DNA of 64,000 nt, taken from Naegleria gruberi (lineage: Eukaryota). How positions within the stretch are numbered: position 1 is the stretch's first letter; the number at the start of each line of letters is the position of its first letter. Both the position numbers and the translations under genes were made by a program. Under the pieces are notes generated by a model, which worked only from the letters and a program-made list of their open reading frames with translations, did no database searches and was not told where the DNA came from. Shown piece after piece: positions 1-18,760 of this stretch. The stretch is taken from NCBI GenBank assembly GCA_000004985.1, contig GG738853.1; one strand, written 5' to 3'.

Positions 1-1659
1 AATTCTATCCAAAAAGCTGGACAGTGCTCTTTCCTTCAAATACAAAGCAATTAATAATTTTACAAATGCACTATAGTTGGCATACCTATACTTTGGGAAT
101 AAATATTGCTTAGGGTAAACTAAAAAGAGAATACCAGAAATCTTTTCTAATGAATCTAAAATCCAAGAATCAATAGTATCCAATTCCAAAATAATATTTG
201 CAAAAGCAGACAAAAATGAAGGAATATGAGAAACTGATTCTTCTAATTGTTCTTGACTTCTAGTTAATAATTGATCACTCAATTTCATTAGTTGTCTCAA
301 AATCATCTTAGTATCACTTTGAGTTAGGAATTTTTTCATTGGTAATGCAAATTGTCCAAAACTTCTAATAGCAATGCTTAGGTAGTATTTGTTAAAGGTT
401 GGATTGGTAGTTGGAGGTGAGGAAGTTCCACTTCCTTGAGTCATTGTAATATCTGCAAAATTGAGTGATAATAAAGATTTGAATTTTTGCATCAGATTTT
501 TAAATGTCCTCAAGTTGGATTCTAATTTTCTCCCTCCTTCACGTACAAGTTCATAGGAAATTTGAGCTAAAAAGCTTTCAAGTGCTGGAAATGAATTCTT
601 TCTAACCTTGTCATTTCTGTGAGAACATAGAGTTGACAATCTGTCAAACATCTTTTCAGCATCAACAGTGAGATATTCCTTAAATTGATAAGCATGTTTT
701 GAAATCATAATTAGAGCTGCTTTAGGTACATCATATCTTGTTTCATTGACAAGTTCCAAACTTGTACAAATTAATTGATAAAGTGGTTTAATATATGATG
801 ATCCTTCCTCTACAGAGCCACCAAATTGTGACAAGAAATGAGAAAGCCCTCTAAATGTTGATGCAATAAGTTGTGGTTCTGGTTTAGCCTTTTTTGATTG
901 ATTCAATAATGTATTCATCAAGAGTGATAACATTTGTTGTTGATACATGTGAGTTTCTCCTGGGAAGTACTCACACAATACACCTAACAAATGCAAAATT
1001 GCTCCTTTTACAGATTGATTTCCACTATTTGTCATTCTTTGAAACTCTTTGAAATAAACTTGAAATACTTCCTTGATGTTTAAACTTGTTTCGGATTCGG
1101 CTGGTGATCTTGTTATTGTTGTTTCATTATTATTGTTATTATCATCCTCCATCAAATCACCTTCCTGTTGTTGTTGGTTAGCAGCTGTTGTTAAAGATGA
1201 CGATGAAGATGATTTGATTAAACTTGATCCATTTTCCATCAAAATAATTAATAATTTAATCAGTGGTGCTATTGTTGATAATCTAACTTGGTTCGAACTT
1301 TCACGTCTAAAAACATTGACACACCACCGTTTAATGATGAGAGCCTGTTCTAAAATTCTCTCCCGAGCAATCTTGATATAATTTAAAAGAAAATCAAAGA
1401 TGGCCTTCCTACTCAATGTCATTGTCTTGTTACCTTGTGTGCTTGGATAGAGTGTTATTGATTGATGAACATAGGCAAATATACCCTTTTCCTCATGAAA
1501 TAAAACACTCGAACACAGACCAATGTCATCGGGTGATAATCTACTAACAAAATCATTCATATCTGATATGATCGATATTGGGTTCAATAGAGCCATTGAC
1601 TTTTCTCCATCTTGCAACACAATGTGAAGATCAGAGAGATTTCTCTCAAGGGCTTGCAT
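1..1659 (-). CDS. Large uncharacterised protein, N-terminal ~553 codons (partial; the 3' end lies beyond the window start). Predicted helical/ARM-HEAT-like. Family not recognised.
   Basis: I reverse-complemented 1..1659 by hand and found an uninterrupted reading frame. It starts at the ATG at 1659..1657, which is preceded by an in-frame TAA: MQALERNLSDLHIVLQDGEKS...ILHLLGVLCEYFPGETHMYQQQ...LFPKYRYANYSAFVKLLIALYLKERALSSFLDRI. An open frame this long would not occur by chance in AT-rich DNA. It was absent from the supplied ORF track, presumably because it has no stop inside the window. The antisense ORF 1073..1381(+) is rejected. Confidence 0.7.
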   Translation of the reverse strand, partial: MQALERNLSDLHIVLQDGEKSMALLNPISIISDMNDFVSRLSPDDIGLCSSVLFHEEKGIFAYVHQSITLYPSTQGNKTMTLSRKAIFDFLLNYIKIARERILEQALIIKRWCVNVFRRESSNQVRLSTIAPLIKLLIILMENGSSLIKSSSSSSLTTAANQQQQEGDLMEDDNNNNNETTITRSPAESETSLNIKEVFQVYFKEFQRMTNSGNQSVKGAILHLLGVLCEYFPGETHMYQQQMLSLLMNTLLNQSKKAKPEPQLIASTFRGLSHFLSQFGGSVEEGSSYIKPLYQLICTSLELVNETRYDVPKAALIMISKHAYQFKEYLTVDAEKMFDRLSTLCSHRNDKVRKNSFPALESFLAQISYELVREGGRKLESNLRTFKNLMQKFKSLLSLNFADITMTQGSGTSSPPTTNPTFNKYYLSIAIRSFGQFALPMKKFLTQSDTKMILRQLMKLSDQLLTRSQEQLEESVSHIPSFLSAFANIILELDTIDSWILDSLEKISGILFLVYPKQYLFPKYRYANYSAFVKLLIALYLKERALSSFLDRI

Positions 1660-1844
1660 GATGGTAAAATAAATTAATTTTTTTTTGATTTAAAATTTGG
1701 AGGGAAATGATTTTATCCAGAATGTGATTGAATCTTTGAGATTATGGAGCCATTTGCAAAAGAAAGTCTCAGTGTTGTTAAATAATAATAATTATTGTTT
1801 GGTACAATTTAATATCACAGAGAATTTACAAAATAGTTACAAGT

Positions 1845-4405
1845 TTAGAATTTGAGCAAATTAGAAGTAGAGGCCTTCTTTGGTGGTGGTAAGAATTCTT
1901 CTTCCTCTTCTTCCTCTTCCTCCTCTTCTTCTTCTTCTTCCTCCTCTTCTTCCTCTTCCTCTTCCTCTTCACCTTCAAGTTCTTCACCCTCTTCCTCTTC
2001 TTCTTCTTCCTCCTCTTCCTCTTCTTCCTCTTCACTGTCATAGAAGTTGTCGATATTATCATCGTCACCTTCTTCTTCCTCTTCTTCGGACTCGTATTCT
2101 TCACTTTCTTCCTCTTCTTCTTCTCCATAGAAATCATCAATATCTCCAGTGAAAAGTTCAGAAGATGTTTCTCCAATAGCACCAACATCAGCTTGACCAT
2201 CAGTAGCAGCCACGACATTTCTTTCCTCATAGTTGAGTGTTTCAACTGGGAAATCGGGCAGAGGAGTGTATCCTGATGTTGAGTGGTTGAGTATGTGTGA
2301 TAATGAACCCAATAAGAATCTAGCACGATCTTCAACGAATTTACTGTTAAGAGAAACAGAATTCTTCTTTCCTGATGACCCAAAGATTTCGTCCGACTTT
2401 TCATGAAGTGTACTTGTTGTTCCCTTTGGATTAAACAAGATATTTCTCATAAATCTGGCACGATCACGAACATCGTAACTTTGATCGTAACGAGCCAAAT
2501 TCAATACGTATTGAATTAACATGTTAATTTGTTCTGATTTCTTATCTCCAGTACTTTCTAAACTCAAATAAAGTTTTGTACTCAAATTCAATGCTTGCAA
2601 TTTAACCAAGTCATCTTCTTTAACAAAGTCTTTAGCTAAAATACGAAGAGCATCAGCAGCAACACCAATACCAACACCTCCTGATGGAAGATATTCAATA
2701 TATTCACCAATCATATAAGCAATACTTGCTCTAGCAATTGGAACCTTAATATCATCCAAAAGAATAGCCATTTGAAGAATAATCTTCTTGTTATCTTCTG
2801 GGTTTTGTTGAAGCAATTGGTGAATAGCAATAATAGATTCAGCAACAATGTGTTCAGAACCTTTGGTAATCAAATTCATGAGAGTTCCAATACAAGATTC
2901 AACAACTTCTGGAATCTTTGAAGCAACTCTGCCCATAGCTTTGATAGTATTATTAACAAAATCTTGTTCTGGGAATTTAACATATGTTCTAAATTCCTTC
3001 AAAATACTATGAACAGTTTCGTCTGTGGCAAGAAGTGACAAAATTTCCAATTTCAAATTTCTTACATAGGCTGGATCACTAGCATAAATAAAGAAATCCT
3101 TCAAATGGTTACCAAAAACTTCTGGTCTTTCTCTAGCAATTGTTGAAACTGACATTAAAACAATGTAAGCATTTTCACGATATGATCTCAAAATTCTCAA
3201 AAGTGGAGTAACACATTTCAATGAAAATTCTTGTCTTGGTGACAAGTAGAAATGTAAATTAACAACCATTAAAACAACTGCAGAGTTTCTAGTTCTTAAA
3301 AGTGGTGCAGTAGATCTGAGTAATAATCTGTGATCTTGATCAAGTTCCATTTCTGCTCCTGGTTCATATCCATCATCGAAAATTTCCTTGTTTCCATCAT
3401 GATCTCCTTCTTCATCATCTTCGTCATCATAGAAAGCACGTTTCTTATAAGTTTCTCCCTTGAATGGTGATTGGAAATGAGTACGACCATATCTCAACAA
3501 CATTTGCATAATAGAACATTGTCCCCATTCATCACAATCAACCAAATATCTACATAACTTTCTAAATACAGGGTGAATCAATTCATAATTTGTTGGACAA
3601 ACTTCATTGAAAGCGTGAACAGCAGCTCCCAAAACCATTGTGTTATTATCCTTTAACAATTCTCCAATTAGTTCGGCACATTCAACAGCCAATTCTTCAG
3701 GAGATTGTCTAAATACTTTAATAATACCAAGAGCAGCAGCCTTTCTAACATATGGACTCATATCATGGAGACACTTTTTGATTCCGACAAGAATAACTGT
3801 GGTAATATCTTGTACGTTCAAACTGGACATGACTCTCAAAGCCAAAGCTCTCAAGAATTGATTCTTATCATCAAGATCCTTTTGGAAGTTGTTAATTGAA
3901 AGCAATGCTTCTTCTTGTTTTTGTTCAGCAAAGTGAACAAGATACATGTACACTAACTTTTTCAATTCAACATTCTTTGTAATACAATTCTTGACAACGT
4001 ATGGGAAGAGAGGTTCGACTTCCTTGCCTGATGAAGCCATCTATATATTTTAATTATTATTTAAATTGTTGTTGTTTGATGAACAATTAAATTATATATT
4101 GTTGTTAACACGATATATAAATATCACCAAGATCATCAATAACAAGATCCAAAACGATAAAGTACAATTAGTCATCAGTCAAATTATCATATTATCCACA
4201 ATCATCATCAAAAAATCCACACAAAAGCACCATCATCAAAAAAACCATCTAAAAAATCTTCACTTACAGCAATAACCTTCTTCATACCAACCAACTTGTC
4301 TCTGAAATTATTAGAATCCAATTGTTTGGTAATCTCATCGAACTTGGCTGTATTCGATTCCTTAAAGTATTTACTATCACCTCCCAAAACTCCTGTGTAA
4401 GACAT
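1845..4405 (-). CDS. AP-3 adaptor complex beta subunit (AP3B-like). Two exons: complement(4268..4405) + complement(1845..4040), 777 aa. Ends in the acidic hinge with no C-terminal appendage domain.
   Basis: Exon 1 encodes MSYTGVLGGDSKYFKESNTAKFDEITKQLDSNNFRDKLVGMKKVIA. It is followed by a GTAAGT donor (plus 4267..4262) and a 227-nt intron ending TATATAG. Exon 2 starts MASSGKEVEPLFPYVVKNCITKNVELKKLVYMYLVHFAEQ. Close matches to human AP3B1 from memory include [75 protein letters not shown] and LGTLSHTLN. The coding sequence totals 2334 nt, which is divisible by 3. Confidence 0.9.
1878..2150 (-). repeat. Coding (GAA/GAG)n trinucleotide low-complexity tract (plus strand TTC/CTC) encoding the poly-Glu tail of the AP-3 beta gene; long homopurine.homopyrimidine stretch
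   Basis: The plus strand from ~1884 to ~1966 consists almost entirely of T and C (ttcttcctcttcttcctcttcctcctc...). The translation is EEEEEEEE... with occasional G/S/L/Y/D. Reading the same DNA in the other frames produces poly-S, poly-L/P and poly-K/R pseudo-ORFs. Confidence 0.9.
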
Positions 4406-4902
4406 TTTTTAAAAACTGATAATTATTAAAAAATAAATCTTTGCTGATGCAACACGACTCCGCTTCCAACTCCCAATTCTAACGACTAGAAAATTTTGCC
4501 ACTTGGCAATAGCCAATTAGAAGATAAGTGCTGGCTGCCTAAGGTGAAAGATTTTTCAACATTGCCTGAGAACATGTTTATTGTTAGATGAAATATTGTT
4601 CTTCCGAAAGTTGAAGGAAGAGATAACAAATATTAGCAAACTAAATTAACAACCAGAACTGTTTATAAAGAACAATGAGAAAGCTGTGCTTCAAACAGAT
4701 AATCATGAATTAATTCATTAATATTTTGAAGAATGAGTAGGAAATATTGTTGACCTAAGATAATTGTGTTCAGGGTTGCCAGGTTTAGATTATCCATTGT
4801 TAAACTGCTGTGCTTGTTTAACATAACTGTTTGGCTGACAATAACATCGTATTAATTGAGTCACTTGTCAAACATAATGACCCAATAATCATTAAAAAAT
4901 AA

Positions 4903-5302
4903 ATGCCAACACAATCAACCTCCTCTAATGATGCTTCCAATAACTATGAACCCATCCTGCAACAAGCAGAACAAATCATCCAAAAACGTTTTCTCATTCC
5001 CTACCAAGAGAAACTCAATCAATTATTAGGAGATAGAGGAAGTATTTCTCCAAACAATTCAACTTCGTCAAATCCATCTACATCTTCAGCAACACTTCCT
5101 CCACTCCAATTAATAGTAAATTGGTCTAGTATTAGAGATTTAATCAGAGAATATCCTGTTAATGGTCTTTCCATTGCTGAGAATGCTATTCAAATATTAC
5201 AAGAACCATCTTTATATGAAAATATGAGGAAAGGTGTGATGAGATACATTTCCGAAGATAAATTACAGAGAACTATATTTAATGATCAGGTAGATGTTAT
5301 TT
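4903..5302 (+). CDS. Hypothetical protein, 5' ORF/exon. Probably exon 1 of the gene that continues at 5743..7262 (see findings). It may instead be an independent gene ending at the in-frame stop at 5380-5382.
   Basis: The ORF starts at ATG 4903 (MPTQSTSSNDASNNYEPILQQAEQIIQKRF...). A strong GTAAGT donor lies at 5303-5308, directly after codon ...DVI plus one base (phase 1). Amino-acid composition is non-random and the ORF lies in the divergent promoter context opposite the AP-3 beta gene. Confidence 0.5.
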
Positions 5303-5742
5303 GTAAGTGTTGCTGTGCTTATCTAATATATTCAATGATTGCGAATTGTCTTTCTGATGATTTATATTTGATGATTCTGTGAAAATGTGGTTGTCTATTA
5401 TTGATAATGTATTGCTGTGCAAAACACATGATTCTCGAAACAAAATTGTTGAAACACTGATTTTATTGGCATGACAATTTACAAATCGGTATTGTGAAAT
5501 TTGATGGAATTTTTTAACAACAATAACCTCGTCTCTAATACCTTTACTCTCTATATTGAAATATCATCATTGACACATTCTATTCACAAACATTTAACAA
5601 CTATTCCAATTTGAATCACAATTGTGGATAATGACACCATTTACTTGTTACTTCTCTTGATTATAATGATGACAATGAATGGTTGACAAATAATAATAAT
5701 AACAACACACTAACTAAACCATATCACAATAACAAACAACAG

Positions 5743-7262
5743 GTATTGACTTTTTTGCAGGAGGACTCAAGAGAGGAGATCAAGGATCTGAAGAGGAAAC
5801 ACTCGGAGAGGAAACAATGGTTGGTCTCTCTGATGAACATGAAGGTCATTTACTGTATATGATTAATGCCAGTACTCAGGAAATACTTGCATCGAGTACA
5901 TTTTATGAACATATTGAGGAGAGTTTTGATGAATTGTTGGAAACTCATCAACAAATATTGGAAAAACAAACAAGTAGTATTTCAAATCAAAAACAAAAAA
6001 CCAATCAATCCATGAAATCCATGCCAATTCAAAGTGGGATTGGAGGAGTAGCTTCAAAATCAAGCCCTCAACTCTCCACTTCACCACTCAGTAGAGGTAG
6101 CAGTGTCATTTTGAGCTCTTCACCAAATGCTCAACAGAGAAGTGCTCTCTCCAGACAAACATTTATGAGCTCTCCAAATTCAGCCACCACTCCAATCTCT
6201 CCTAATGATTTAACAACTGGAAAATCCAAGCCACCACTAAGAAGAATGTCATACGTCTATGATCCTAAGCATTTGGATGATGACGATTTGATTGGAAGTT
6301 CTACCTCAATGTCACACATTAATCCTGATACATTGGCTAGTGATTCGGATTTGGATAAAATTGAACAATTGAGACGTGTATGTCTTCATCCACATATTTG
6401 GGAAAAGAGAGATGTTTCCAAGTTGATTAGAATTTTACAAAATGAGGATCTTCGTTATTGGAAACCAAATTCTGAGCAATCAGTCATGATTGAAAAATCA
6501 GTTGAACAATTGGAAGCTAGATTTAAGAAATTTGCATCCAATGAAAAAATTGTCAAGGCGTGGATGATTACAAAGATTAATAGAAAGAGTTTGAAACAGG
6601 AGAGAGTTTTCGTCTTGACTGATTCCAAATTCTATACAATGAAATTCTCAAAGGATATTGATGAAAAGCATATCAAGATGTATCCTCTGAGTGCTGTAGC
6701 CATGATGGATTGTGCCAGATTTATTCCAAATAAGGATAAGAAGAAGAAACCATACGGTCTGGCAGTTTATATGGATGAAGAAAAAGTATCATCCGGTTCC
6801 AAAGTTAATGGAGATGAAGCTGAAACACATACCTATCTTTCACATGATGATAAGAAAAAGAAGAAGAATCTCTCTCAAAAAGTCATGGGTAAACTCCGTA
6901 AGGAAAAGACTCTCCAGACCAACTATGATGATTCCTTCGATGATGATGGTGATAGCTCTTCTATGGATGCTTCTCGTAGAGGAACAATTGTGGAAGAAAT
7001 CTCTCTCGAAGAAAAGTCACAACTCAGACCAGACACTAGTAATTTGGTAGCTCAATATTTCATGTCATGCAATACTGTTCACCAAAGTGAAGACCAACGT
7101 GAATTCCTGATGGAAATTTCATGGGCTATCTTTGCCTGTTGTAGTGCATTGAAAGGTGAACAACAACTCGTGCCATTCACACAACATCAAATCAAGAGAC
7201 CAAAGAAGGATTTGGTTGGCACCTACTTGTATAATAAGCTCAGTATTGGTATGAAGAAATAA
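5743..7262 (+). CDS. Hypothetical protein with a PH-like domain segment (KAWMITKINRKSLKQERVFVLTDSKFYTMKF...MYPLSAVAMM). The ORF starts at ATG 5817 if it is an independent gene, or at the 5743 acceptor if it is joined to 4903..5302.
   Basis: The ORF 5817..7262 is 481 aa long. It contains Ser-rich and Lys/Asp-rich low-complexity segments plus globular segments. The in-frame upstream extension back to 5743 has no stop, so it can be joined in phase to the 5302 donor. The combined length 400+1520=1920 nt is divisible by 3. Confidence 0.65.
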
Positions 7263-7693
7263 ACAAGCACCAATTTTTTTCAACAAGTCTTTACCACAGT
7301 AGCATAATTTGAACTAATCTTGATATCTCTTAATAATAAAAAACTTCTCTTCATGTTCCACTACAATCCCTCCTCACAAACCATCAACCTTCCAGTAGTA
7401 ACATCACAATGAAAATTAAACTGTTTATCTCAATCGACAAATTCATAGAGAATCTCTTCAACAAATTTCTCAAACTCTTTTCAAGTCCCCACCTCTCTGA
7501 GGAAAACGAGAAATTAATTTGTACATCGTGATGGCTGTTTTGGTCCGAAAAAAATCCTCACTCACAACTCTCTCTCACGCAGCACACGGAGGCAGTAGAA
7601 GACGAAGTTAGTTCTTCTTTTTTGAATTTCCCCCTTTGGTCTATTTGCCGTTACATCATCATACCCCCAAAAGACAACATCTTTTTGTTTTTT

Positions 7694-7705
7694 ATATATA
7701 TTTAA
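7694..7705 (+). promoter_or_regulatory. TATA-like element (tatatatattta) ~125 bp upstream of the pfkB-kinase ATG
   Basis: TATATATA motif in the intergenic region 7263-7824. No other supporting evidence. Confidence 0.25.
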
Positions 7706-7824
7706 TATAACTACTCGACTACTAATACTGCTACTAGTTTGATAAGCTAAGAAGAATTGTACATTTTCTCCATAATATAATATCGTCATCTTTTAAACCC
7801 GAATAATATTTACATCATCATACA

Positions 7825-9454
7825 ATGACAACCGTTCCAAATATTGCTTCATCATCCCATAAACAACCATATAATGTTTTGGGTCTCGGACAGCCTTTAC
7901 TGTAAGTATTAATACTTTGCAAAGTAGTAGAATGAATTTGTGGTTTATTTCAATGCCATATCATGATATGTTATTATACAATGGCAACAATAACATTATT
8001 AAAATCAAAGTGACAAGATGTTCTTTGTCACTGAACAAACTCTTCAAGCTCTCGGTATTAAAGAAAAAGGTGGTTCACAACTCATTGAAACTCAACAAGA
8101 ATTAGAAGCATTTTTACAAAAACTTTCAGAATTACTTCAATATGACTGTAATCATTGTTTAGATCACCCAAATATATCTCCTAGTGGAAATAATATGTTT
8201 ACCAACTCTTCCGTGAAATCAGGAGTTAAAATTCCAAATGGAACACCAACAAAAGATAGTAATAATCATTTGATTGCTGCATATTCACCAAAGACAGCTA
8301 ATTTCCATCGTAGTTTGAGTCAATATCCACGTGGTTATATCTGTAGTGGTGGTTCTTGTTGTAATACAATTAAGGGAATGTCTGGATTGGGAGAATCATG
8401 TGCTCTTGTCGGAAAGATTGGTAATGATCCACTTGGTGTTCTTTACAGAAACCACTTGACTAAACGTCACGTATTCCCACTCATGTCTATGTCACCTCTT
8501 ACTAGAACAGGAGAAGTCATTTGTCTTATTACTCCTGACGGCCAACGTACCATGAGAGCCTTCTTGGGTTCATCATTGGAAATGACTGCTGATGATTTAG
8601 TTCCAAGTGATTTCCAAGGAATTAAATTATTACACGTAGAAGGTTATGCCATTTATAATCAACCATTAACATTGAGAGCTATTCAATTAGCTAAAAATGC
8701 TGGTGCTATGATTAGTTTCGATTTGGGAAGCTTTGAATTGGCTAGAGGATTTAAACCATTGATTTTGGAATATCTTTCCAATTATGTGGATATTGTTTTT
8801 TGTAACTCTGAGGAAGCTCGTGAATTACTTGGATATGAGGATGCAGAAGGAGCTGTTGATTATTTGGCAAGTTTCTGTCGTGTAGCTATTGTAATGATGG
8901 GCAAGGATGGTTGTTGGGTCAAGGAAGGAACCACATCAGGTAAAACATCAGGGAAAGGAGAAAAATATAGACACCAATTGTCTGAGGAAGAAGTTGTTTT
9001 ACACCCATTGGATACAACTGGTGCTGGTGACTTGTTTGCTGCTGGCTTTTTGTATGGATATATTCAAGGATATAGTATGGAACAATGTGCTCGTTTAGGT
9101 AGCTTGAATGCTCGTGAAGTTGTTCAAGTTATGGGCGCAGAAGTTCCAGCTGATAAATTCAAGGAAATTAAGGGTGGTGTTAATAAGGATTTCCGTGTAC
9201 GATCATCAAGTAATGCTGGTACTGGTAAATCAGTTCCAATTAGAAAGAAGGAAGGTACAAGTGCTAGTTCCTCATTAGCTGGTAGTTTTGAAGAATTCAA
9301 ACATCAAAAGATTGGAAGTGCTAATTTTGAATATGAAATTGCATTTGAACATGATGAAGAATATGAAGAATATGAAGAAGAAGAAACAGAAGAAGATTTG
9401 GATGATTTGGATGAAACCGATTCAAAGAATGATGCCTTGTTTGCCCTCGAATAA
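7825..9454 (+). CDS. pfkB-family carbohydrate/nucleoside kinase (adenosine-kinase/ribokinase-like). Two exons: 7825..7901 + 8011..9454, 506 aa.
   Basis: Exon 1 encodes MTTVPNIASSSHKQPYNVLGLGQPL(L). It ends at a GTAAGT donor (7902-7907, phase 2). Acceptor ...CAAAG ends the intron at 8010, which restores LGQPLLD, matching the adenosine-kinase N-terminal GMGNPLLD motif. Exon 2 carries a GGSCCN glycine motif. It also carries the pfkB signature-2 DTTGAGDLFAAGFLYG near the C-terminus. Total coding length 1521 nt (507 codons including the stop) is divisible by 3. Confidence 0.85.
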
Positions 9455-9535
9455 TTTCCTCCAACAAAAATTAATTATTAAATAAAATAAAAAGTAAATA
9501 ATTTAAATTCAAATGTAAATCACAATTTAAAAAAA

Positions 9536-9781
9536 ATGATACCAGTCAATAACAGCTTTTTGCAAAAGCTCATCAATATGGGCATTTCCGTTCTGAAGAA
9601 GGAAGCAGCAAATAGATTGGCTGCAAATCAAAAATTTCAAGAATTTGTCCACAAGACTGAAACACAAAAAGTGAACATGACCAAACCTGAAAATATAGGG
9701 AAGGTGAAGGATTTCGGAGGACACTTTTTTACTGAATTAAAAACCATCTTGAGAGAGATGAATCCTTTTGCTAGAAAATAA
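9536..9781 (+). CDS. Small hypothetical protein (81 aa). Family not recognised.
   Basis: The ORF has balanced, non-low-complexity composition (MIPVNNSFLQKLINMGISVLKKEAANRLAANQKFQEFVHKTE...). It lies ~80 bp downstream of the pfkB stop on the same strand. It could equally be 3'UTR, so confidence is low. Confidence 0.35.
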   Translation: MIPVNNSFLQKLINMGISVLKKEAANRLAANQKFQEFVHKTETQKVNMTKPENIGKVKDFGGHFFTELKTILREMNPFARK

Positions 9782-10070
9782 TTATATTGTCACACAGTCA
9801 CGTAAAATTATTATCGAACGGAAATTGTTGGATGTAGTAGCATCAGTAAATTAGAAATTATTTGTCTCCTGTGATGAGAACAATAAAGTTAAATAATCGG
9901 AAGGTTGGTTTAATTAATTTGGAATGATAGATAGTTTGCACATCACTCTATCATTTTAATCTTAATATTCCTTCCACAAGTAATAATGGAAATTATAGAT
10001 TATCATATCTCATTAGTAATGTCTAATTTCTTGTTCGCAATTATCAAGCTCTTCTTGGTAATTAATCCAT

Positions 10071-11368
10071 TTAATGTGTTGCTGCTTTATTCTTGTTTTC
10101 TTTCCTCTTTCTTTTCCAAACATTGAACTTTTTCTTAATGCTGTGAATCCAATCGACGATAACTTCTGCAATTAATCCAATCATGATAGATTCAAACCCA
10201 AGTCCAATAATAGCAAAGAACATGAAGAATATCTTGCCTCCTTGAGTTGTAGGATAGAAATCACCATATCCAATTGTTGCCAAGGTCACAAAGACATACC
10301 ACGCAGATTCATTATAAGTCCATCCTTCGAGTGCCATCATAATTGCAGCACAAGTAAAGGCATAGGCCAACCAGAAAAATGTATAGTATCCTAATTGAAC
10401 TGATGAACTGAAAAGAATTCTATAAACCAAATCAGTTTTCTTCATTTTCACGTCTGTTTTCCTTATGAGTCCAACAAGTGCGTAAATTCCCATAGAAATT
10501 AACAAGAGAATGTTCTTTACAAATCCTGTAGTGGTTTTACCTACTGTTACAAGCAAGGTACCCATAATTGCAATACCAATTAATCCAAAGAAACCAATAT
10601 AAATTCTGCCACCTGTCAAACTGTTAAGAATTAAATGTAAAATTAATACATACCAGCTGTTTTGTAAAATTGTCATCCCTAACTTTAAACTATGAAATAC
10701 TTACGAGTTGAAGCTGCCATATCACCATAACCAATTGTAGTAAATGTCACAAGACAATAGTAAACAGAATTTCCATATGTCCACTTATCCAATCTCACCA
10801 AAGTACCATTTTCAACTAAGGTCGACCCGTTATTTCGAATTCTCTCCAAATATTCATTTCCACCTTCAATTGCCCAAATAGGCAAAGCAGAAAGCAATAA
10901 AAATCCAATAATTAAAAGCGTCATGCCAAGTAAAATTCCAACATTTGTTAAACCTTCTCGATAATGATAAGTGGCATATTTATCCTGAGCGTGATACTTT
11001 TTAAATCTTCTCTCCACAAACTCGAATGTAAAATCAGCCACTCTCAACTTTTTTTCTTTCATCTGATCTTTCAGACCATCATCTGGATCAAAATTATCAA
11101 TCACAGCTTTAAACATTGCATAATTCTCTTCATTCAATTCATAACTTTGCAAGAATTGTTTTTCTCCCAATTCTTCCTCATTCACCACACAATAATATCC
11201 ATCACTACCACCATTACCATTATCATTACCATCACCAATATTATTCTTATTCTTATTAGTATCATCATCTTCAATGGAATTTGTATTCTGATGATCCTTC
11301 AATTCAACATTCTGATCATCTTGCTGAGTTGTTGATCCATCCAACCCACCCGACATTGATCCATCCAT
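10071..11368 (-). CDS. Two-pore-domain potassium channel (K2P/KCNK-like, 4TM/2P). Two exons: complement(10705..11368) + complement(10071..10612), 401 aa.
   Basis: There are two pore signatures: VTFTTIGYGDMAAST and VTLATIGYGDFYPTTQGGKIFFMFFAIIGLGF. Hydrophobic M1-M4 segments are present. A GTAAGT donor (plus 10704..10699) lies immediately after the first filter (phase 1). The 92-nt intron ends ...TTTGACAG. The reconstituted junction reads ...YGDMAAST-R-GRIYIGFFGLIGIAIMGTLL, which is the expected M2 helix. Total coding length 1206 nt is divisible by 3. Confidence 0.9.
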
Positions 11369-11929
11369 AATTGTTTAAACTGTTTTTTCTCAATTTATCT
11401 TTTACCGAAAAATGATGAAAAAAAACCTCAGTAAGCCAGAGTTTGATGTTTTTCTATTTTTTTTGGTTTGTTGAGAGCGGGAATCTAAAGCTGAGTTTGT
11501 GGGATTTTGAAGAGTTTCGGAAGCAATTCAATTGGTTGAGTAGAAGGGTTGGTTCCTTGGCAGTGATTCGTTTTGCATGTTCATGGGGTGATTTTAGTTT
11601 ACAATGTTTTTTATCCGCTATTAATTAGGAAAAGTCCGAAATGTTTGCTGATTTCTGTTCTCTAATTTTGTAAAATGTCTACAGTAAAAGCTTCAAAATA
11701 CAGGTTTTGATTCGTCCTAAGTGAAATTAATAATTAGTTTCGAATTTTGTTACAATAATTCCTATTACTTATTAGAAATAATTCAATGCTGTGTTCGGTT
11801 TTTAATCGGAAATATTTTTGACGGAAACTGTATTTTAATCAAGTTAACACACTTAATAACGGAAAGAGAAAAGTTTCGAACGATTTCGAATAACAAACCA
11901 CATATTCCACCAACATTGGTATTGCTAGT

Positions 11930-13357
11930 ATGTTGCTATACTGTAGCTTGTTACATCTCTTGCAAAGATCATCACAATATTTCCCACAAATATTTAATAT
12001 TTTAAAATGGGAATCAAAAGAAGCAAGTGGTCACCTTGAAAGGTATTCGAATTGTAAAAACCACCAATTTAAACCAATAAAAAAAAACAATGCCTCCAAA
12101 CAAACAACTTGTCAGCTTCTTGCTGTACTACTCTTGGTTTCGCTCTTTAATTTTTCCCTTTTCACAGCAGGAGCAGCAACGCAAAGTTCAATGGTCAATT
12201 TACCAATTTCTTCATCATTGACATTGTCAACTACACCATTTCTTCACAATCATTATAAGAATCGTCATTCACTTGTAATTACATTGGAAGAACAAGTTAA
12301 TGCTTTAATCCAAAATGAAAAGATTATTCATCTTCCTGCATCAATTTTTCAATTCGCCACAGATGGCAATTTTTGGCAGACATATGGTAATTTGGTTATT
12401 GTGATTATTGTACTTTCAGTGTTTATTCTGTTTTTGGTATGTCTTGTGCTGCCAATGATTTTGAGTTGTGGTGCCTTGTGGATTTTTAAATGTTGCCTTC
12501 ATTCGGCTAATTTAGGACCTCGTGAAGAGAGTGAACTAATTGACCAACAGTATTCACGTCTTGCGCAGGTTACTCTTGATCCAGGATGGAAAACTCGTGT
12601 CAGGTATAGACTATTCGATGTCAATTTTACAGATTGTGCTATTTTAATATTTTGGTTATTGTTTTGGCCATTTAGAAAACTTAGTTGTGGAATATTTGAC
12701 AGTTGTTTCATATTGAGAATGACAAGATTCAATGTAAGAAGAATGAGGGTTGGAAACAGAAGGTTGGATTTGCATATTTCAGACGCATGTTGCACCATCC
12801 CATTCATTCACTTTTTAAATAATTTTTGTAATTTTTACACGTTTGGATTGTGGAGAGCACTTGGACTCTATCATCGATTCTATCTTTCAAGAATTGATGA
12901 AAGAATTTATTGGAAACCAATCGAAAATGATGGAAGATATGAATCACAAGTAGTGTGGCAAAACTTTTCAGAAAAAAACTCATTCAGATGGTTTAGTATT
13001 TATTGTGGTTTGTATACAGAATTGCTGTATTGGTTTTTGAAAGTTATCAATGTTTTCGCTTTATTCCTCCTTGGACCATTCATTGAGGCATGGTATATAA
13101 GAAAACGAGTTCAGTATTCCAAATTTGGTGGAGTTGGATCATTTGCAGTGTACAGTAATGGATCTTTACAAGCATTGGTTGCGAATTCTCCAAAGGTTTT
13201 GACCCTGTCCAATTCAATCAGTGGATGTTCCTATTTTACAAGAATTTTAATTTATAGATTGTTGAATTTAATTACTCTGGGAATATTTGGATGCGTTGTT
13301 GGTGGAGATCGATATTTTCTTGGATTTATCGATGAGCATTTGTATCTATCAATGTAA
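11930..13357 (+). CDS. Hypothetical Cys/Trp-rich integral membrane protein. Start uncertain: the alternative start is Met88 at 12191.
   Basis: Long ORF of 475 aa. It contains a signal-peptide-like or TM segment (LLAVLLLVSLFNFSLFTAGAATQ), a clear TM segment (LVIVIIVLSVFILFLVCLVLPMILSCGALWIF) and further hydrophobic stretches. It lies in divergent orientation to the K2P gene. Confidence 0.6.
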   Translation: MLLYCSLLHLLQRSSQYFPQIFNILKWESKEASGHLERYSNCKNHQFKPIKKNNASKQTTCQLLAVLLLVSLFNFSLFTAGAATQSSMVNLPISSSLTLSTTPFLHNHYKNRHSLVITLEEQVNALIQNEKIIHLPASIFQFATDGNFWQTYGNLVIVIIVLSVFILFLVCLVLPMILSCGALWIFKCCLHSANLGPREESELIDQQYSRLAQVTLDPGWKTRVRYRLFDVNFTDCAILIFWLLFWPFRKLSCGIFDSCFILRMTRFNVRRMRVGNRRLDLHISDACCTIPFIHFLNNFCNFYTFGLWRALGLYHRFYLSRIDERIYWKPIENDGRYESQVVWQNFSEKNSFRWFSIYCGLYTELLYWFLKVINVFALFLLGPFIEAWYIRKRVQYSKFGGVGSFAVYSNGSLQALVANSPKVLTLSNSISGCSYFTRILIYRLLNLITLGIFGCVVGGDRYFLGFIDEHLYLSM

Positions 13358-13553
13358 TTAGTATTTCAAAGGTTACTTGGAATACGAAACTATCCTAAAC
13401 TACCTTTTATTGTAACTGATAAATCAATTAGCAATATAGAATAGTTAGGGAGGAATTCTTCTGGAGCAGTTATGGAGCTTGATTATTGGTCAAGAAGAGC
13501 TTGAACCATTTATAAAACCTTTCAATTCACTGGAGTGTTGGATCATTACGAAT

Positions 13554-14681
13554 TCAGAATGTTATGAATGAAAGATCGTAAAATGTTGAATTACTCAATT
13601 GACGTCTAAGTAGTGAAAAGAAAAATATTTCTTCTGGAGATTTAGCAACTGTGAAAGTTTTTCTATAGATATAGCCATGCCAAGGACCACATACAATAAT
13701 TTCCTGTTCATCATTAATTGCTTCTTGTGGAATTTGAGCAATACAAAAATGAGTATCCGTTTTTACACCAGTTGACACACTAGTACAGTACACATCTTTG
13801 AATGGCCCCTCAATTTGAATACGTTGAAATTCTTTTACTGGACCAGACGCTCCAACCGATAATCCACATTGATTACTAGAATTTAGACCTCGACAGAATA
13901 TTTGGCCATCTTCCAATAGTAGAGCAATGTGAGCAAATCCTGTATCAATCTTTTTGATTTCACAAGTGAACGATAATTTAAGCTCTTTCGTTTGGTACGC
14001 GTTTCCTTCGTTCATAAATCCAAATCCAATATTTCTAATGAACAATCTATTGTTTTTTAAGAGAATGAATTGGGCTGTACCATTTGAGCAACAAGAAAAT
14101 TGTTTCACTTGGTAATCAGGAAGTGGGAATCCGATGTCGAATGCTTCAGTATCAACTTCTTTTTCATAAATAGTTCCATCAATTGTCTGAACTAACCAAC
14201 AGGTTGACATGATTCCACTTCCAACACAATGAATTAATGAACTGTGCGAGATAAAGAATTTGTTCATTTTCAATGCTTGAGTATCGAATTCAAACAAAGA
14301 TCCGTCCATCATTTCAAATAATATGAATCTTGCATTATTTGAAACAACTCTCTTCATCAATTGACCTCTTTTACAGTTGCTCAACTCGGGTAACAGTGAA
14401 CTAAACTTCATTTTCTCTCCCATTATCACAAAATATTCACTCTCCTCTCCTTCAAACAGAAACATTGAATAATTAGGGGCTTGATTACTTCCACCACAAC
14501 AAATATACGAAACTCGTATTAATTCATTTGCTTCAATCTCGGAAGGAGAAAAATTATTTTCTGGATGAGGAAATATTAAAGGCCTAATTTCCACAACATC
14601 CCATTCGTATTCAATCCCATCTGTCCACACTTTAGAGTCATTAAATTTTGTGTGGGATTTCATTCCGAAGGCTTTGATCAT
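13554..14681 (-). CDS. Hypothetical protein with degenerate RCC1-like (beta-propeller) repeats, 375 aa
   Basis: It has repeated G-x-N-x-x-x-Q-C/L-G-like units ([49 protein letters not shown]) at the spacing typical of RCC1 blades. It is intronless. Its ATG at 14681 faces the cenH3 gene across a 74-bp promoter. Confidence 0.6.
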
Positions 14682-14716
14682 TTTTTTTGTTTTTGTTAAT
14701 TAAAGAGTTAATAAAT

Positions 14717-14730
14717 TTTTGGCGCCAAAA
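14717..14730. promoter_or_regulatory. Perfect 14-bp palindrome TTTTGGCGCCAAAA (E2F-type site TTTGGCGCCAAA) in the bidirectional promoter between the RCC1-like gene and the cenH3 gene
   Basis: Read directly in the sequence. It matches the consensus of the palindromic E2F/DP site. It lies 35 bp from one ATG (14681) and 26 bp from the other (14756). Confidence 0.5.
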
Positions 14731-14755
14731 TTTTGAAAAAATCAATACAGAAAAA

Positions 14756-15575
14756 ATGGCTCAAAAGATGAAAGAGTGTTTGAGGGAACCTCAGTTGAGC
14801 ACAACTGATCAACAATTTGGTGAGCAAGGCTTTGAAAGGTTTGATGTAGAGTTTTTTGGTGAGAATGAAGTTTCGGAGAGGGCTTTTGAGGAATTATTCG
14901 AAGATGATTTGGATATGAGTGAGAATAATTCAATGATTTCTTCATTCCCTGTATCCGATCAGCACCAAGAAGATGAGAAAGGAAAGCAAGCCATTGCAGA
15001 AGAAGAACAGCAAGAACCATTGGAAACAAGAAGGCATGGAGAGATTGTCACTCAACCAAAGAATAATCAGATCGGGTTAAAGACAAGGTTATTATATGCT
15101 CAGAAGGCTCCTAGAAAATCTATCAAACAATTTCCTCAGAAGGCCCCAAAGAAATCAATTAATTGCAGAGGGAAACCTGTGAAGAAGCCTCGAAAGTGGA
15201 AGAAAGGTACAGTAGCTTTGAGAGAAATCAAAAAGTATCAGAAAGGAGTCGAATTGTTAATTCCTAAAGCTAATTTTGTTAGGCTTGTGAGAGAAATTGC
15301 AAACTCTAAGAGACAAGATGATCCTCTCAGATTCAGTGCAGAGTAAGTTTCTAATTATTATAATATCCTATAATGAGTTATGAAGTGCCTTGTTAGCTCT
15401 GCAAGAAGCTGCAGAACATTACCTTGTAAATTTGCTTGAGGACTCTTATTTGTGTGTAAGTTTTTCTAAATTATTAAAATAATTTCTTAATGATCCTTCT
15501 TAGGCTCTTCATGCAGGTAGAGTAACATTGATGAAAAAAGATATTCAACTCATAAAAAGATTATTGGGCTTGTAG
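14756..15575 (+). CDS. Centromeric-type histone H3 variant (cenH3/CENP-A-like). Three exons: 14756..15342 + 15386..15455 + 15504..15575, 242 aa.
   Basis: The ~170-aa N-terminal tail is divergent and acidic/Gln-rich. It is followed by an H3 histone fold: [100 protein letters not shown]. Loop 1 is 2 aa longer than in canonical H3, a cenH3 hallmark. The two introns are 43 nt and 48 nt, each GTAAGT...AG. Total coding length 729 nt is divisible by 3. The first ATG of the supplied ORF (14687) is rejected in favour of 14756 (AAAATGG) because 14687 lies 6 bp from the neighbouring gene's start codon. Confidence 0.8.
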
Positions 15576-15576
15576 T

Positions 15577-16941
15577 TTACTTTCTGGATGAAAGACAAAC
15601 AAGACCATAATCGCCACTATATCTCCAATTGCTGACAGTTTCCTTGACGCTATTAAACTTTTCCATATCCTTAATACCAATCAGTGAGTAACTCTTAATT
15701 GTTCTCAAACTGCAAATACCATTCTTGGCAGGGAAATATTGCAAAGTTTGATTAAAATCTTGTTCGATTGGCAATTTGGCATCATTGATTGTTCTTCTAT
15801 AGTTTGCATCTCCCTTGATGAAAATAAATTCAAAGTCATTTCTCAATTCATTGGCCAAATCTTGTGGTATTTGGGTATATTCGAGTGGAGAAGTAAAGAA
15901 GGTATGCTTTTTGAATTTCCATTGTTGATTATCAATATATTGAGAGAATCGCTTGCCATATTCACCAATAATACCTTCATGATCTACGAATCGTGAGATA
16001 GTTTGTTGGAAATCTCTTTCAGTAACATCACTCACAAAGACTGGTTGATATTTACCAAAGAATGTAACACTGTCAATAAAGTCCAATCTCAATAAGGTAT
16101 CAGCCATGAACATGTCACTCACAAGTTCTAAACCAACATTATCAAGAATGATGGCCAAATGTCTTGTTCCCTTCTCCTTCAATTTGATATTGTCCAAAAT
16201 TTTAACAACCTCTGTCAAATCATTTGACAAGATATTTTCCTCTAAACTCTTCTTAAACTTTTCGGTATGATTTTGAAGTCCAGTTGACAAGCTTAAATCG
16301 GCTTGATTTCCCCACAAACTCAATACAATACTTTCTCTCACAAGACTCAATATCTTATCTCCTTCGGTTGGCAATTCACTCAACAGCTCACAAAATTGTT
16401 GAGCGACAGTCTTTTCAGACTTGGAGTTAAAAACAACATCTAAAGACTTTTTCTTTTGATTACCGAAAGGATCCCATCTCAACAATGGTGAATCAGCTTT
16501 CCAAAATTCAGTAATATCCAAAATCAATCTATAAAAGTAATTCTCCACGAAGAACCAAGTCATTTCCAACCAATTTTTATCCTCAACACCAAACATCTTT
16601 TCATATTTGGCCCAATTTTCCAAATCAGCCCTCACATTCTCATCATCAACAGCTTGATCAGCCTTTAGAGAAATTCTCAACTTGGTACAAACATCTCCTT
16701 CAACTAATTCCTCTTCCAATGCTTTTAACTTGTGCAATATTTCGGGATGTTGTTGTAGTAACTGTTCCTCCTTGTTGGATTCAATCATGGATTGAAGAAT
16801 CTTTGGCAAACGTTCAATGATGGAAATGTAGGTAAAACCTCCATCCATGCCGATCAATGGTTTCCCATCATCATTATGATTTTCCCATGAGAGTAGATGT
16901 TCACGATCGGAAGGTGAAAGACGATGTTGTTGTGTTGCCAT
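15577..16941 (-). CDS. ARMT1/DUF89-family protein (damage-control sugar-phosphate phosphatase / C6orf211-like), 454 aa, intronless
   Basis: DUF89 motifs are recognised: ...DYF.., SLWGNQADLSLS, AIILDNVGLELVSDMFMADTLL (the metal-binding D-N...E...D), FFGKYQPVFVSDVTERDF, IFIKGDANYRRT and CSLRTIKS. The length is similar to human ARMT1. Confidence 0.8.
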   Translation of the reverse strand: MATQQHRLSPSDREHLLSWENHNDDGKPLIGMDGGFTYISIIERLPKILQSMIESNKEEQLLQQHPEILHKLKALEEELVEGDVCTKLRISLKADQAVDDENVRADLENWAKYEKMFGVEDKNWLEMTWFFVENYFYRLILDITEFWKADSPLLRWDPFGNQKKKSLDVVFNSKSEKTVAQQFCELLSELPTEGDKILSLVRESIVLSLWGNQADLSLSTGLQNHTEKFKKSLEENILSNDLTEVVKILDNIKLKEKGTRHLAIILDNVGLELVSDMFMADTLLRLDFIDSVTFFGKYQPVFVSDVTERDFQQTISRFVDHEGIIGEYGKRFSQYIDNQQWKFKKHTFFTSPLEYTQIPQDLANELRNDFEFIFIKGDANYRRTINDAKLPIEQDFNQTLQYFPAKNGICSLRTIKSYSLIGIKDMEKFNSVKETVSNWRYSGDYGLVCLSSRK

Positions 16942-16996
16942 TTTTTTTGTATTATTTTAATATTTAAATAGTTAATATTTATAAATATATTTAATA

Positions 16997-17575
16997 TTAA
17001 TTTTTGGATAAAATCTTCACTGGTCGATTATTCTCCTTCTTTCTTGGACACGCATATCGTGTAACAATCTTAAATTCATGAGTAAATTCCTTCTTAAAAG
17101 TCTTTTTACTCGTTCCAATGTAAAATCCCTTAAATTCTGAATCCTCATCACAAACCAGGAAACATTTGGCTCCATGTAATTCACCTGCCAAACTCACAAA
17201 CATATCAAATTCAACAATGACTCCATTTTGAATATGTTTAGGATCGAAAAGTGAAATTCTGGGTCCAGGTTTTCCAATACCAAAACATCGATCAAAATAA
17301 TTGTCAATGAAAGCAATTTGAAATTGTCCTTGATTGGTGGTGGCATAGCATGAGGCATTGGTGGAAGTTACTGGCTTACACAAATTAAGCATGTAATAAT
17401 TTCCTGGCAAGTGAAGAGTGTCAATAATTTTGTGGCCAGTGGTGCCATTGTCAGCTTTGGAAAAATCAATGATCATTCCATCCTTTTCAATGAAACAATT
17501 CTGAGAGAAGACAGTTGTGGAGATGAAGATGAGTAATATGCAGAAAGAACAGATGAATAAGTGTGAGAAATGCAT
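16997..17575 (-). CDS. Small secreted protein (192 aa) with an N-terminal signal peptide and a Cys pattern reminiscent of an MRH (mannose-6-phosphate-receptor-homology)-like domain. Family assignment is tentative.
   Basis: MHFSHLFICSFCILLIFISTTVFSQ has a signal-peptide shape. Conserved-looking Cys/Gly/aromatic positions follow (LNLCKP...CYATT...FDRCFGIG...CFLVCDEDSEF...YACP). The ORF lies 55 bp downstream of the ARMT1 start on the same strand. Confidence 0.55.
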   Translation of the reverse strand: MHFSHLFICSFCILLIFISTTVFSQNCFIEKDGMIIDFSKADNGTTGHKIIDTLHLPGNYYMLNLCKPVTSTNASCYATTNQGQFQIAFIDNYFDRCFGIGKPGPRISLFDPKHIQNGVIVEFDMFVSLAGELHGAKCFLVCDEDSEFKGFYIGTSKKTFKKEFTHEFKIVTRYACPRKKENNRPVKILSKN

Positions 17576-18056
17576 GCTTTTTTTTTCAGTTTTTGAGTAT
17601 GAGATCCATGGATCTGCTGAAACGTTCGCTTCTTTCGAATGTAATTGCTACTTGCCAAATTTAAAAGATTTTGGATTCAATGGACGAGCTGCATTAGAAA
17701 GTTTACCAATCATATTATAATCAATGTAAATAATTGATTACAATGAGTAATTGGTTGCAGTTAGAAAGAGAATAAGTTTTTGAGTTTCATCTTGATGGAC
17801 TTTTTCTTTTTGAAAAGCTGGTTATGGGACATACTTGTGACTTTCGAACAGGAGAAAATATGAGGTTGTGATGGTGTTAACACTAACTGTTCCAATGTTG
17901 TTGAATTTCTATTCTTTTTGAATAAATTCAGTTTAGACGAAGATCTATTCGAAACATTGGGCGAGAAGAAATCCATTCCCTTACTCGTTCCAATTCTCAA
18001 TTTCAAAATAATATCCATTAAATTTGAAATATCTTTTGCAATATTTTGATCTTTGG

Positions 18057-18106
18057 NNNNNNNNNNNNNNNNNNNNNNNNNNNNNNNNNNNNNNNNNNNN
18101 NNNNNN
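18057..18106. other. Scaffold gap (50 N)
   Basis: Run of exactly 50 n characters. Confidence 1.
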
Positions 18107-18214
18107 GGATTTGTATTGACTATTTCATTGGCTGGTTATTCCATTTTTTGCATTATCTTTGTGGAAGATAATTTCCAAAATTAGTAATTTTTATAAATAT
18201 TAAATTTGTGATTC

Positions 18215-18760
18215 TTAATATTTAATAATATAATTAAGAACCAATGATGGTTGCATATTTTCATGAGCTGAATTTCCACCAACTTCATTGGTTGTGAAAT
18301 TGTGAGTATGATTGGCTCCTGTAAAATTATCGTCATCCTTATGAGTAGCTGGACCTCCACACCATCCTGGAGTATGGAAAACATCAGAAATTGGTCCAGA
18401 TTGATGAACTATAATGTAAGGTTGTTTGTTGGCTTTTCCAGTGGTTCCTGAGTGTGAATGACTTGGTAGTTCACTAATTTGCAATTGGTGAGATTCTTCT
18501 CCAACTTTTTGAGCTAGAGTTCTATTGGAAAGTCCAGCTCCGTGACCAATTCCAACAACTGCTCTTCCCCTGAGGTCGGGAACATTGAATGAGTGAGGTC
18601 CTCCTGTACTTCCATATGCATTTCCAATAGTTTGAAACAATCGAATATAATCTGGATGACTATTCGGATAGGTGGCTCCATCACACAATAACCAACCTGC
18701 TGGTATAGTTGTTCCAGCAAATGCATTCACAATACCAACAGGAATTATAATTTGAGATTC
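18215..18760 (-). CDS. Phage tail-collar-domain protein (PF07484-like; MdpB / T4 gp12-like short tail fibre C-terminal region). 5'-partial: the ORF is still open where it meets the N-gap at 18761.
   Basis: Translation: ...ESQIIIPVGIVNAFAGTTIPAGWLLCDGATYPNSHPDYIRLFQTIGNAYGSTGGPHSFNVPDLRGRAVVGIGHG...SHQLQISELPSHSH...ENMQPSLVLNYIIKY*. It has the canonical tail-collar motifs: P.G.I..(F/W)AG...P.GWLLCDG, (L/Y)F..IG..YG, (F)N(L/V)PDLRGR...G and C-terminal QP..(L)NYII. The frame is open across all 546 nt up to the gap. Codon usage is AT3-biased like neighbouring genes. Confidence 0.75.
   Translation of the reverse strand, partial: ESQIIIPVGIVNAFAGTTIPAGWLLCDGATYPNSHPDYIRLFQTIGNAYGSTGGPHSFNVPDLRGRAVVGIGHGAGLSNRTLAQKVGEESHQLQISELPSHSHSGTTGKANKQPYIIVHQSGPISDVFHTPGWCGGPATHKDDDNFTGANHTHNFTTNEVGGNSAHENMQPSLVLNYIIKY

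Follow-up and report, generated by a model that had tools for sequence, protein, structure and literature searches.

A tail-collar gene of bacterial, phage or giant-virus ancestry, probably acquired horizontally, in the genome assembly of the amoeba Naegleria gruberi

Proteins with a phage tail collar domain are known from phages, bacteria, giant viruses and at least one group of animals. In bacteriophage T4, gp12 (PDB 1OCY, 1PDI, 5IV5) is a 527-aa part of the baseplate with a long N-terminal triple beta-helix shaft; its collar domain comprises residues 342-397, and H445 and H447 from each of its three chains coordinate zinc on the three-fold axis of the head (PMC3004832). Bacteria encode stand-alone collar proteins of ~170-300 aa, the COG4675/MdpB group. 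The name MdpB reflects an expression phenotype in Microcystis rather than any known activity, and microcystin-dependent expression is irrelevant to an amoeba. Giant viruses of protist and algal hosts also encode collar proteins, with examples in Cafeteria roenbergensis virus (CroV; E3T4R8), Orpheovirus (a collagen-like protein) and Chlorella virus XW01; these have additional N-terminal parts, consisting of collagen-like or pentapeptide repeats or of ~95 extra residues. Lastly, the rotifer Rotaria magnacalcarata has stand-alone PF07484 proteins of 183-211 aa (A0A816NWK8 and others), several of which (P0147 and P0151-P0154, found through a search that started from the environmental protein P0016) are encoded on contigs of 121-335 kb in several assemblies, and which are presumably horizontal acquisitions.

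Our analysis concerns a 64,000-nt stretch of N. gruberi contig GG738853.1 (referred to below as the window), in which 18,710 bases, at positions 1-18056 and 18107-18760, are readable. The second of these segments is an island of 654 bp with N on both sides, exactly as delimited in a first-pass annotation made from the sequence alone. Its minus strand carries a partial collar-domain coding sequence (18215-18760) of 181 codons followed by a TAA stop codon (18215-18217); the 5' end is cut by N, and the frame is still open at 18760. The 181-aa, intronless, partial ORF that had been proposed is real, and the chance of 181 stop-free codons at the base composition of the island is ~2e-6. The translation shows 100% identity with residues 11-191 of an N. 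gruberi NEG-M protein (XP_002680548.1 / EFC47804.1 / D2V5I7) recorded on a 695,587-bp scaffold, and the gene is thus already known and annotated, having been in databases since the 2010 genome. NCBI calls the protein "microcystin-dependent protein", as JGI does many of its relatives; no NCBIfam model matches the collar ORF. A literature search returned no paper linking Naegleria with "tail collar" or "microcystin-dependent protein" and none naming D2V5I7, and the protein is not named in the supplements of the ContScout and methylation papers.

Flanking ORFs in the window correspond exactly to the N. gruberi proteins EFC47810 and EFC47811 and to part of EFC47662, all from the same 695,587-bp scaffold. 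Since both the collar ORF and its flanks are identical to N. gruberi proteins, the host is a heterolobosean amoeba and not an animal, and we rejected the earlier suggestion of a compact, bdelloid-like animal genome. The description of the neighbouring genes as clearly eukaryotic was sound: other ORFs in the window have ordinary eukaryotic domains, namely Adaptin_N, hSac2, PfkB, two Ion_trans_2 halves, RCC1, histone and ARMT1-like. The analogy with rotifers survives in part, in that R. magnacalcarata does have collar genes on large contigs, although the host here is an amoeba. The Rotaria proteins resemble the Naegleria protein in being stand-alone PF07484 proteins in a eukaryote, but they are only 37-40% identical to it and lack both its NP..Y..V...GW.GG insert and its HTHNF motif, which suggests that the two were acquired independently.

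Some of the neighbouring genes have features of their own. The ORF with the Adaptin_N domain (1845-4040, minus strand), of the AP-complex beta type, has a very long acidic tail that includes more than 30 consecutive Glu residues in runs, and the opposite strand of this tail contains spurious Leu/Pro-rich and Lys/Arg-rich ORFs. At 10071-11368 (minus strand), two adjoining ORFs separated by 8 bases each have an Ion_trans_2 pore domain; these are probably a single two-pore K+ channel gene, broken by a short intron or a frame change. An ORF at 14687-15346 (plus strand) encodes a histone fold (H3-like) preceded by ~145 additional N-terminal residues, and its frame is lost at the 3' end; this is consistent with the cenH3 assignment made in the first-pass annotation together with a downstream exon. 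An environmental metagenome contig of 4,280 bp (L146; ERR1078381, PRJEB11402) is 99.1% identical to positions 5377-9630 of the window and encodes two proteins identical to window ORFs, the hSac2-like protein and the PfkB kinase. This match indicates that an N. gruberi-like amoeba was present in the sample; the collar gene itself was not recovered from it.

The translated ORF matches the Phage Tail Collar Domain (PF07484), as had been anticipated, over residues 9-67 (18560-18736, minus strand) with E=1.6e-17 and 63.6 bits against a cut-off of 24, covering profile positions 1-56 of 57. The remainder of the protein (residues 65-175; 18236-18568, minus strand) resembles the head or needle of phage fibres, with a match to PF21939 (Gp10_C) that narrowly misses the threshold (26.1 bits against a cut-off of 27, E=1.9e-5); some relatives carry a precomputed match to the same family. 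This C-terminal part includes a low-confidence variable insert (residues ~110-150) and a conserved terminal strand, ...QPSLVLNYIIKY. Twenty-four PHROG families match the protein, most of them tail, tail-fibre or tail-collar families (best 2.9e-26). In an alignment with 119 relatives, all 35 of the positions conserved in at least 80% of the family are kept in the Naegleria protein. Two HxH motifs stand out. The first, H101-S-H103 (18452-18460, minus strand), occupies positions that are conserved in 97% of the 119 relatives, and the second, H151-T-H153 (18302-18310, minus strand), lies within an HTHNF motif common to the closest subfamily; HTHNF occurs in P0002 and P0004-P0009, and P0003 has HTH only.

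The likeness to T4 gp12 extends from the collar domain to the first HxH pair. A profile alignment (hhalign, probability 96.8%) places residues 4-110 on gp12 339-455, such that H101 and H103 fall on the zinc ligands H445 and H447, and residues 4-82 align with gp12 339-414, a segment that spans the gp12 collar domain. An AlphaFold2 monomer model has a pLDDT of 82.1 and is weak only in the variable insert, where residues 128-143 score below 50. Its best matches among solved structures are the tail fibre of cyanophage A-1(L), the T4 gp12 tip (Foldseek E 7e-5 to 9e-5), the bacterial protein C24 of Bizionia argentinensis (PDB 6OV6) and the needle tip of T4 gp37. Nonetheless, identity to gp12 is only ~24-32% over the aligned part, the N-terminal region of the Naegleria protein would, by analogy with its relatives, be short at most where gp12 has its shaft, and the Naegleria gene adjoins eukaryotic genes rather than tail genes. 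With the bacterial stand-alone proteins, the Naegleria protein shares PF07484, a similar length, the C-terminal ...QPSLVLNYIIK and the same set of conserved residues; it differs from them in its identity (51% at most), in its lack of an NCBIfam match, and in being encoded in a eukaryotic genome with eukaryote-like codons.

In a search of 5.8 billion proteins, the best relative after the protein itself is 51% identical (in the best 120 of 859 matches), and the 90% cluster of the collar protein has a single member. As judged by sequence comparison, its closest relatives belong to bacteria, phages or giant viruses or are environmental sequences without assignment, and no other named Naegleria or other eukaryote sequence occurs in the best 120 of the 859 matches. 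Among the matches listed, the closest come from environmental contigs: P0002 (51%), P0003 (48%) and P0012 (47%). P0012 has bacterial surroundings (ExbD, DksA/TraR) on a contig of 67% GC, P0002 is on a contig of 66% GC, and the P0004-P0011 group has a bacterial context with McdB and transposases. Where the context of the nearest relatives could be read, it was bacterial in two cases (L003 and L004-L006); P0002, P0003 and P0016 are on environmental contigs of 1 kb. Named bacterial genomes reach at most 43% identity (Bacteroidetes, Patescibacteria and Verrucomicrobiota MAGs). Over the full length, identity does not exceed 41% for viral contigs and 44% for metagenome contigs, and values of 51-53% occur only on short partial segments; all cultured phages fall below 39%, and a plasmid DNA search returned no match. 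These scans for a donor, which covered viral, metagenome and bacterial genome sequences, cultured phages and plasmids, found nothing closer than the protein search had. The comparisons thus point clearly to an ancestry of bacterial, phage or giant-virus type, and we name no donor.

A neighbour-joining tree, built without bootstrap support, puts the Naegleria protein beside P0016, followed by P0002, P0012 and P0022, whereas BLAST ranks P0003 and P0002 first. P0016 is a protein of 185 aa from a very AT-rich, 1.1-kb environmental contig (L147, 1-1099). Its gene (GC3 0.11) is alone on this contig apart from the end of a convergent, GC-richer ORF, and has 306 nt of AT-rich non-coding sequence upstream. 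P0003 is likewise alone on a contig of ~1 kb (L002, 1-1064), with 162 nt upstream.

The third codon positions of the collar ORF are AT-biased, as had been noted at first sight: GC3 is 0.176, compared with 0.21-0.34 in the flanking ORFs. We modelled host codon usage on nine flanking ORFs (3,614 codons) and scored the collar ORF, which offers only 181 codons, against this model and a low-GC bacterial model. The collar ORF scores a log-likelihood ratio of +0.079 per codon in favour of the host; the leave-one-out scores of host ORFs range from -0.027 to +0.116, and those of the 29 bacterial ORFs all lie below zero. A second contrast used 137 non-host ORFs with GC3 <0.25, taken from loci with collar homologues. 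Here the collar ORF scores +0.065 and the host ORFs 0.007 to 0.171, whereas none of the 137 ORFs reaches +0.065, and two collar homologues whose GC3 is the same or lower have scores of -0.142 and -0.112. Moreover, the fraction of Leu codons that are TTG is 0.40 in the collar ORF and 0.41 in the host. The codon choice is specifically Naegleria-like, beyond mere AT-richness. Since these host-like codons are unmatched among 137 non-host ORFs that are equally rich in AT at third positions, a resident, acquired gene is favoured over contamination; the earlier proposal of an ameliorated acquired gene rather than raw contamination is borne out to this extent, the collar ORF scoring above all 29 bacterial and all 137 other non-host ORFs. 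If the codons were remodelled in the host, then the intact frame and the full set of conserved residues imply purifying selection there, an argument that fails if the donor shared the codon preferences of Naegleria.

We therefore consider it probable, though by no means assured, that the collar gene is a genuine nuclear gene of N. gruberi NEG-M that was acquired horizontally and has since adapted to host codon usage. The source would have been of bacterial or phage type, and the gene may have been handed on by a giant virus. For residency of the gene in the Naegleria genome by whatever route, with the larger viral insertion considered below counted in, our confidence is high. Against residency, the gene is a singleton without an independent copy in other datasets, even though neighbouring genes recur in an environmental assembly.

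The physical linkage of the island to the scaffold has to be weighed separately. To its left, a gap of 50 N (18057-18106) separates it from the N. gruberi contig that contains the upstream end of the EFC47811 gene (16997-17575). To its right, where the first-pass annotation had placed a second gap, there is no short gap; instead, a single run of 45,240 N (18761-64000) continues to the end of the window and hides the 5' end of the collar gene, its promoter and the whole of its right side. The caution that the island is attached to the eukaryotic genes only through scaffolding gaps was correct: with a 50-N join on the left and only N on the right, linkage of the 654-bp island rests on unseen mate-pair data. 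A contig of 654 bp is, by our estimate, about the size of a single Sanger read. The Sanger libraries made for the N. gruberi genome had inserts no larger than fosmids, ~40 kb, and a native scaffold gap that exceeds 45 kb would be out of the ordinary.

The public gene model is relevant here. It is 191 aa long, and nothing readable in the window codes for MELGFAFQLT, the ten residues with which it starts. The annotated protein must thus bridge the N run, and we do not trust this N-terminus. Either the public scaffold contains readable bases beyond 18760, or an intron of >45 kb, which is implausible, would have to be assumed. Given the limit that fosmids set on insert size, and given that the first exon of the public model must lie in readable sequence past 18760, we suggest that the 45,240 N in the window are not simply a single assembly gap. 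As for the true N-terminus, several relatives total only ~172-195 aa, with ~20 residues ahead of the collar domain, and the missing part of the Naegleria protein may thus be short. A shaft is not obligatory in such proteins, and the earlier worry that a tail-fibre shaft had been lost in the gap is not required by the data. Of the features that would mark a tail fibre, a shaft or attachment domain would fall in the 5' end, which is N, and tail-gene neighbours are not seen, the right flank being N and the left neighbours eukaryotic.

An alternative, which we regard as unlikely, is that the 654 readable bases mark the margin of a larger foreign insertion, such as an endogenous giant virus, virophage or Polinton-like element, with the remainder concealed in the N run of 45 kb. 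On this view the collar gene would encode a structural or fibre protein of the virus and would not be a domesticated gene of the host. The CroV collar-domain protein E3T4R8 is the top match of our model among predicted viral structures (E=2.3e-15, 36% identity, TMq 0.67), and a collar domain also occurs in a collagen-like protein of Orpheovirus. Chlorella virus XW01 protein P0019 is 43% identical to the Naegleria protein, and a chlorovirus-like relative is found on a 748-kb contig. A GC3 of 0.18 would fit AT-rich giant viruses, and a region that is repeated or foreign might go unassembled and leave a long stretch of this kind beside the gene. Naegleria is cited as a giant-virus host (Arthofer et al., 2024, via PMC12344493). 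However, the giant-virus proteins, at 36-43% identity over the whole length, are no closer to the Naegleria protein than its bacterial and environmental relatives; among the matches listed, the latter have 47-51% identity, a little above the 43% of the closest named virus. The codons of the collar ORF are host-like, whereas giant viruses reportedly mismatch the codon usage of their hosts (PMC11702301). The left neighbours are ordinary amoeba genes, the right side is only N, and no viral gene context is visible at the locus. A literature search on endogenous viral elements in N. gruberi found nothing specific.

We also considered a scaffolding error, in which a chimeric clone or a false mate-pair link would have brought a foreign read from the culture or library, be it of a bacterium, a phage or another source, into the Naegleria scaffold. 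A 654-bp contig with N on either side is as weakly placed as a contig can be, the gene is without an independent copy, and contamination of this assembly is documented, since ContScout found 135 bacterial contaminant proteins in it (PMC10831095 supplement). A weak hint that the public record orders the gene differently is that EFC47804/D2V5I7 is numbered before EFC47810/D2V5J9 and EFC47811/D2V5K0 (15577-17575) and yet is positioned after them in the window; we rejected accession order as evidence of misplacement, as the numbering is not strictly positional for other genes either. Several observations make a misjoin improbable in our judgement. The host-like codon usage is equalled by none of the 137 similarly AT-rich non-host ORFs. 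Sequenced bacteria, phages and plasmids are all distant, with protein identity of at most 51% among the matches listed and no DNA match, and, with no match above 51% in the 5.8-billion protein set, no laboratory contaminant that has been sequenced can have supplied the island. No bacterial intrinsic terminator follows the stop codon of the collar gene in its 3' flank (18107-18214, downstream on the minus strand), which has 24% GC, compared with 31% in the intergenic DNA of the window, and is thus as AT-rich as its surroundings or more so. Furthermore, axenic culture of N. gruberi is possible (PMC12344493). The same flank has no unusual structure (z = -0.15), and scans for tRNAs and Rfam families over the 18.7 kb that can be read found nothing.

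That the gene is resident but a dead-on-arrival relic, untranscribed and functionless in the amoeba, we consider very improbable: there is no orthologue in other named Naegleria and no paralogue among the matches listed, and the 5' end and promoter are hidden by N, but against this the 181-codon frame is open, all 35 family-conserved positions are intact, and so much synonymous change without damage, if it occurred in the host, would imply purifying selection.

Returning to the reading that we prefer, a resident and horizontally acquired gene, we propose that the complete protein is small and stands alone, probably at ~190-200 aa, and that a short C-terminal part resembling a fibre head or needle comes after its collar domain. 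On the model of the T4 gp12 receptor-binding tip, three chains may intertwine round a three-fold axis, with a metal ion held by H101 and H103 of each chain locking the trimer; the second HxH (H151/H153) and the conserved C-terminal strand could then complete a compact head. Such a rigid trimer would bind surface glycans or saccharides such as lipopolysaccharide. A trimeric, metal-stabilised glycan binder is, on this comparison, the likely function. In a bacterivorous amoeba, the most economical role would be that of a secreted or surface lectin for bacterial envelopes, for example in prey recognition. A more specific proposal is that a receptor-binding tip of phage or bacterial origin was domesticated in the amoeba as a trimeric, metal-locked module with affinity for LPS or other glycans, serving either as a lectin, soluble or on the cell surface, by which bacterial prey is recognised, or as an antiviral decoy. 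This proposal is speculative, and we hold it to be rather unlikely as stated. If it is true, the short, AT-rich, environmental proteins P0016, P0134, P0135 and P0003, together with the rotifer genes, would point to repeated eukaryotic capture of the module.

At present, the collar gene is a database-annotated orphan on a read-sized contig, from a known family of very large size, and it serves in practice mainly as a caution, given that the public N-terminus is stitched over a gap and that the scaffold placement should be treated as provisional. If the gene is resident and expressed, it would be a clean case of the capture, by a free-living bacterivorous amoeba, of a receptor-binding module of phage type. 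It would join the little-noticed eukaryotic PF07484 genes, alongside those of bdelloid rotifers and of the giant viruses of protists, and it would provide a simple protein with which to ask whether eukaryotes reuse phage adhesins against bacterial surfaces.
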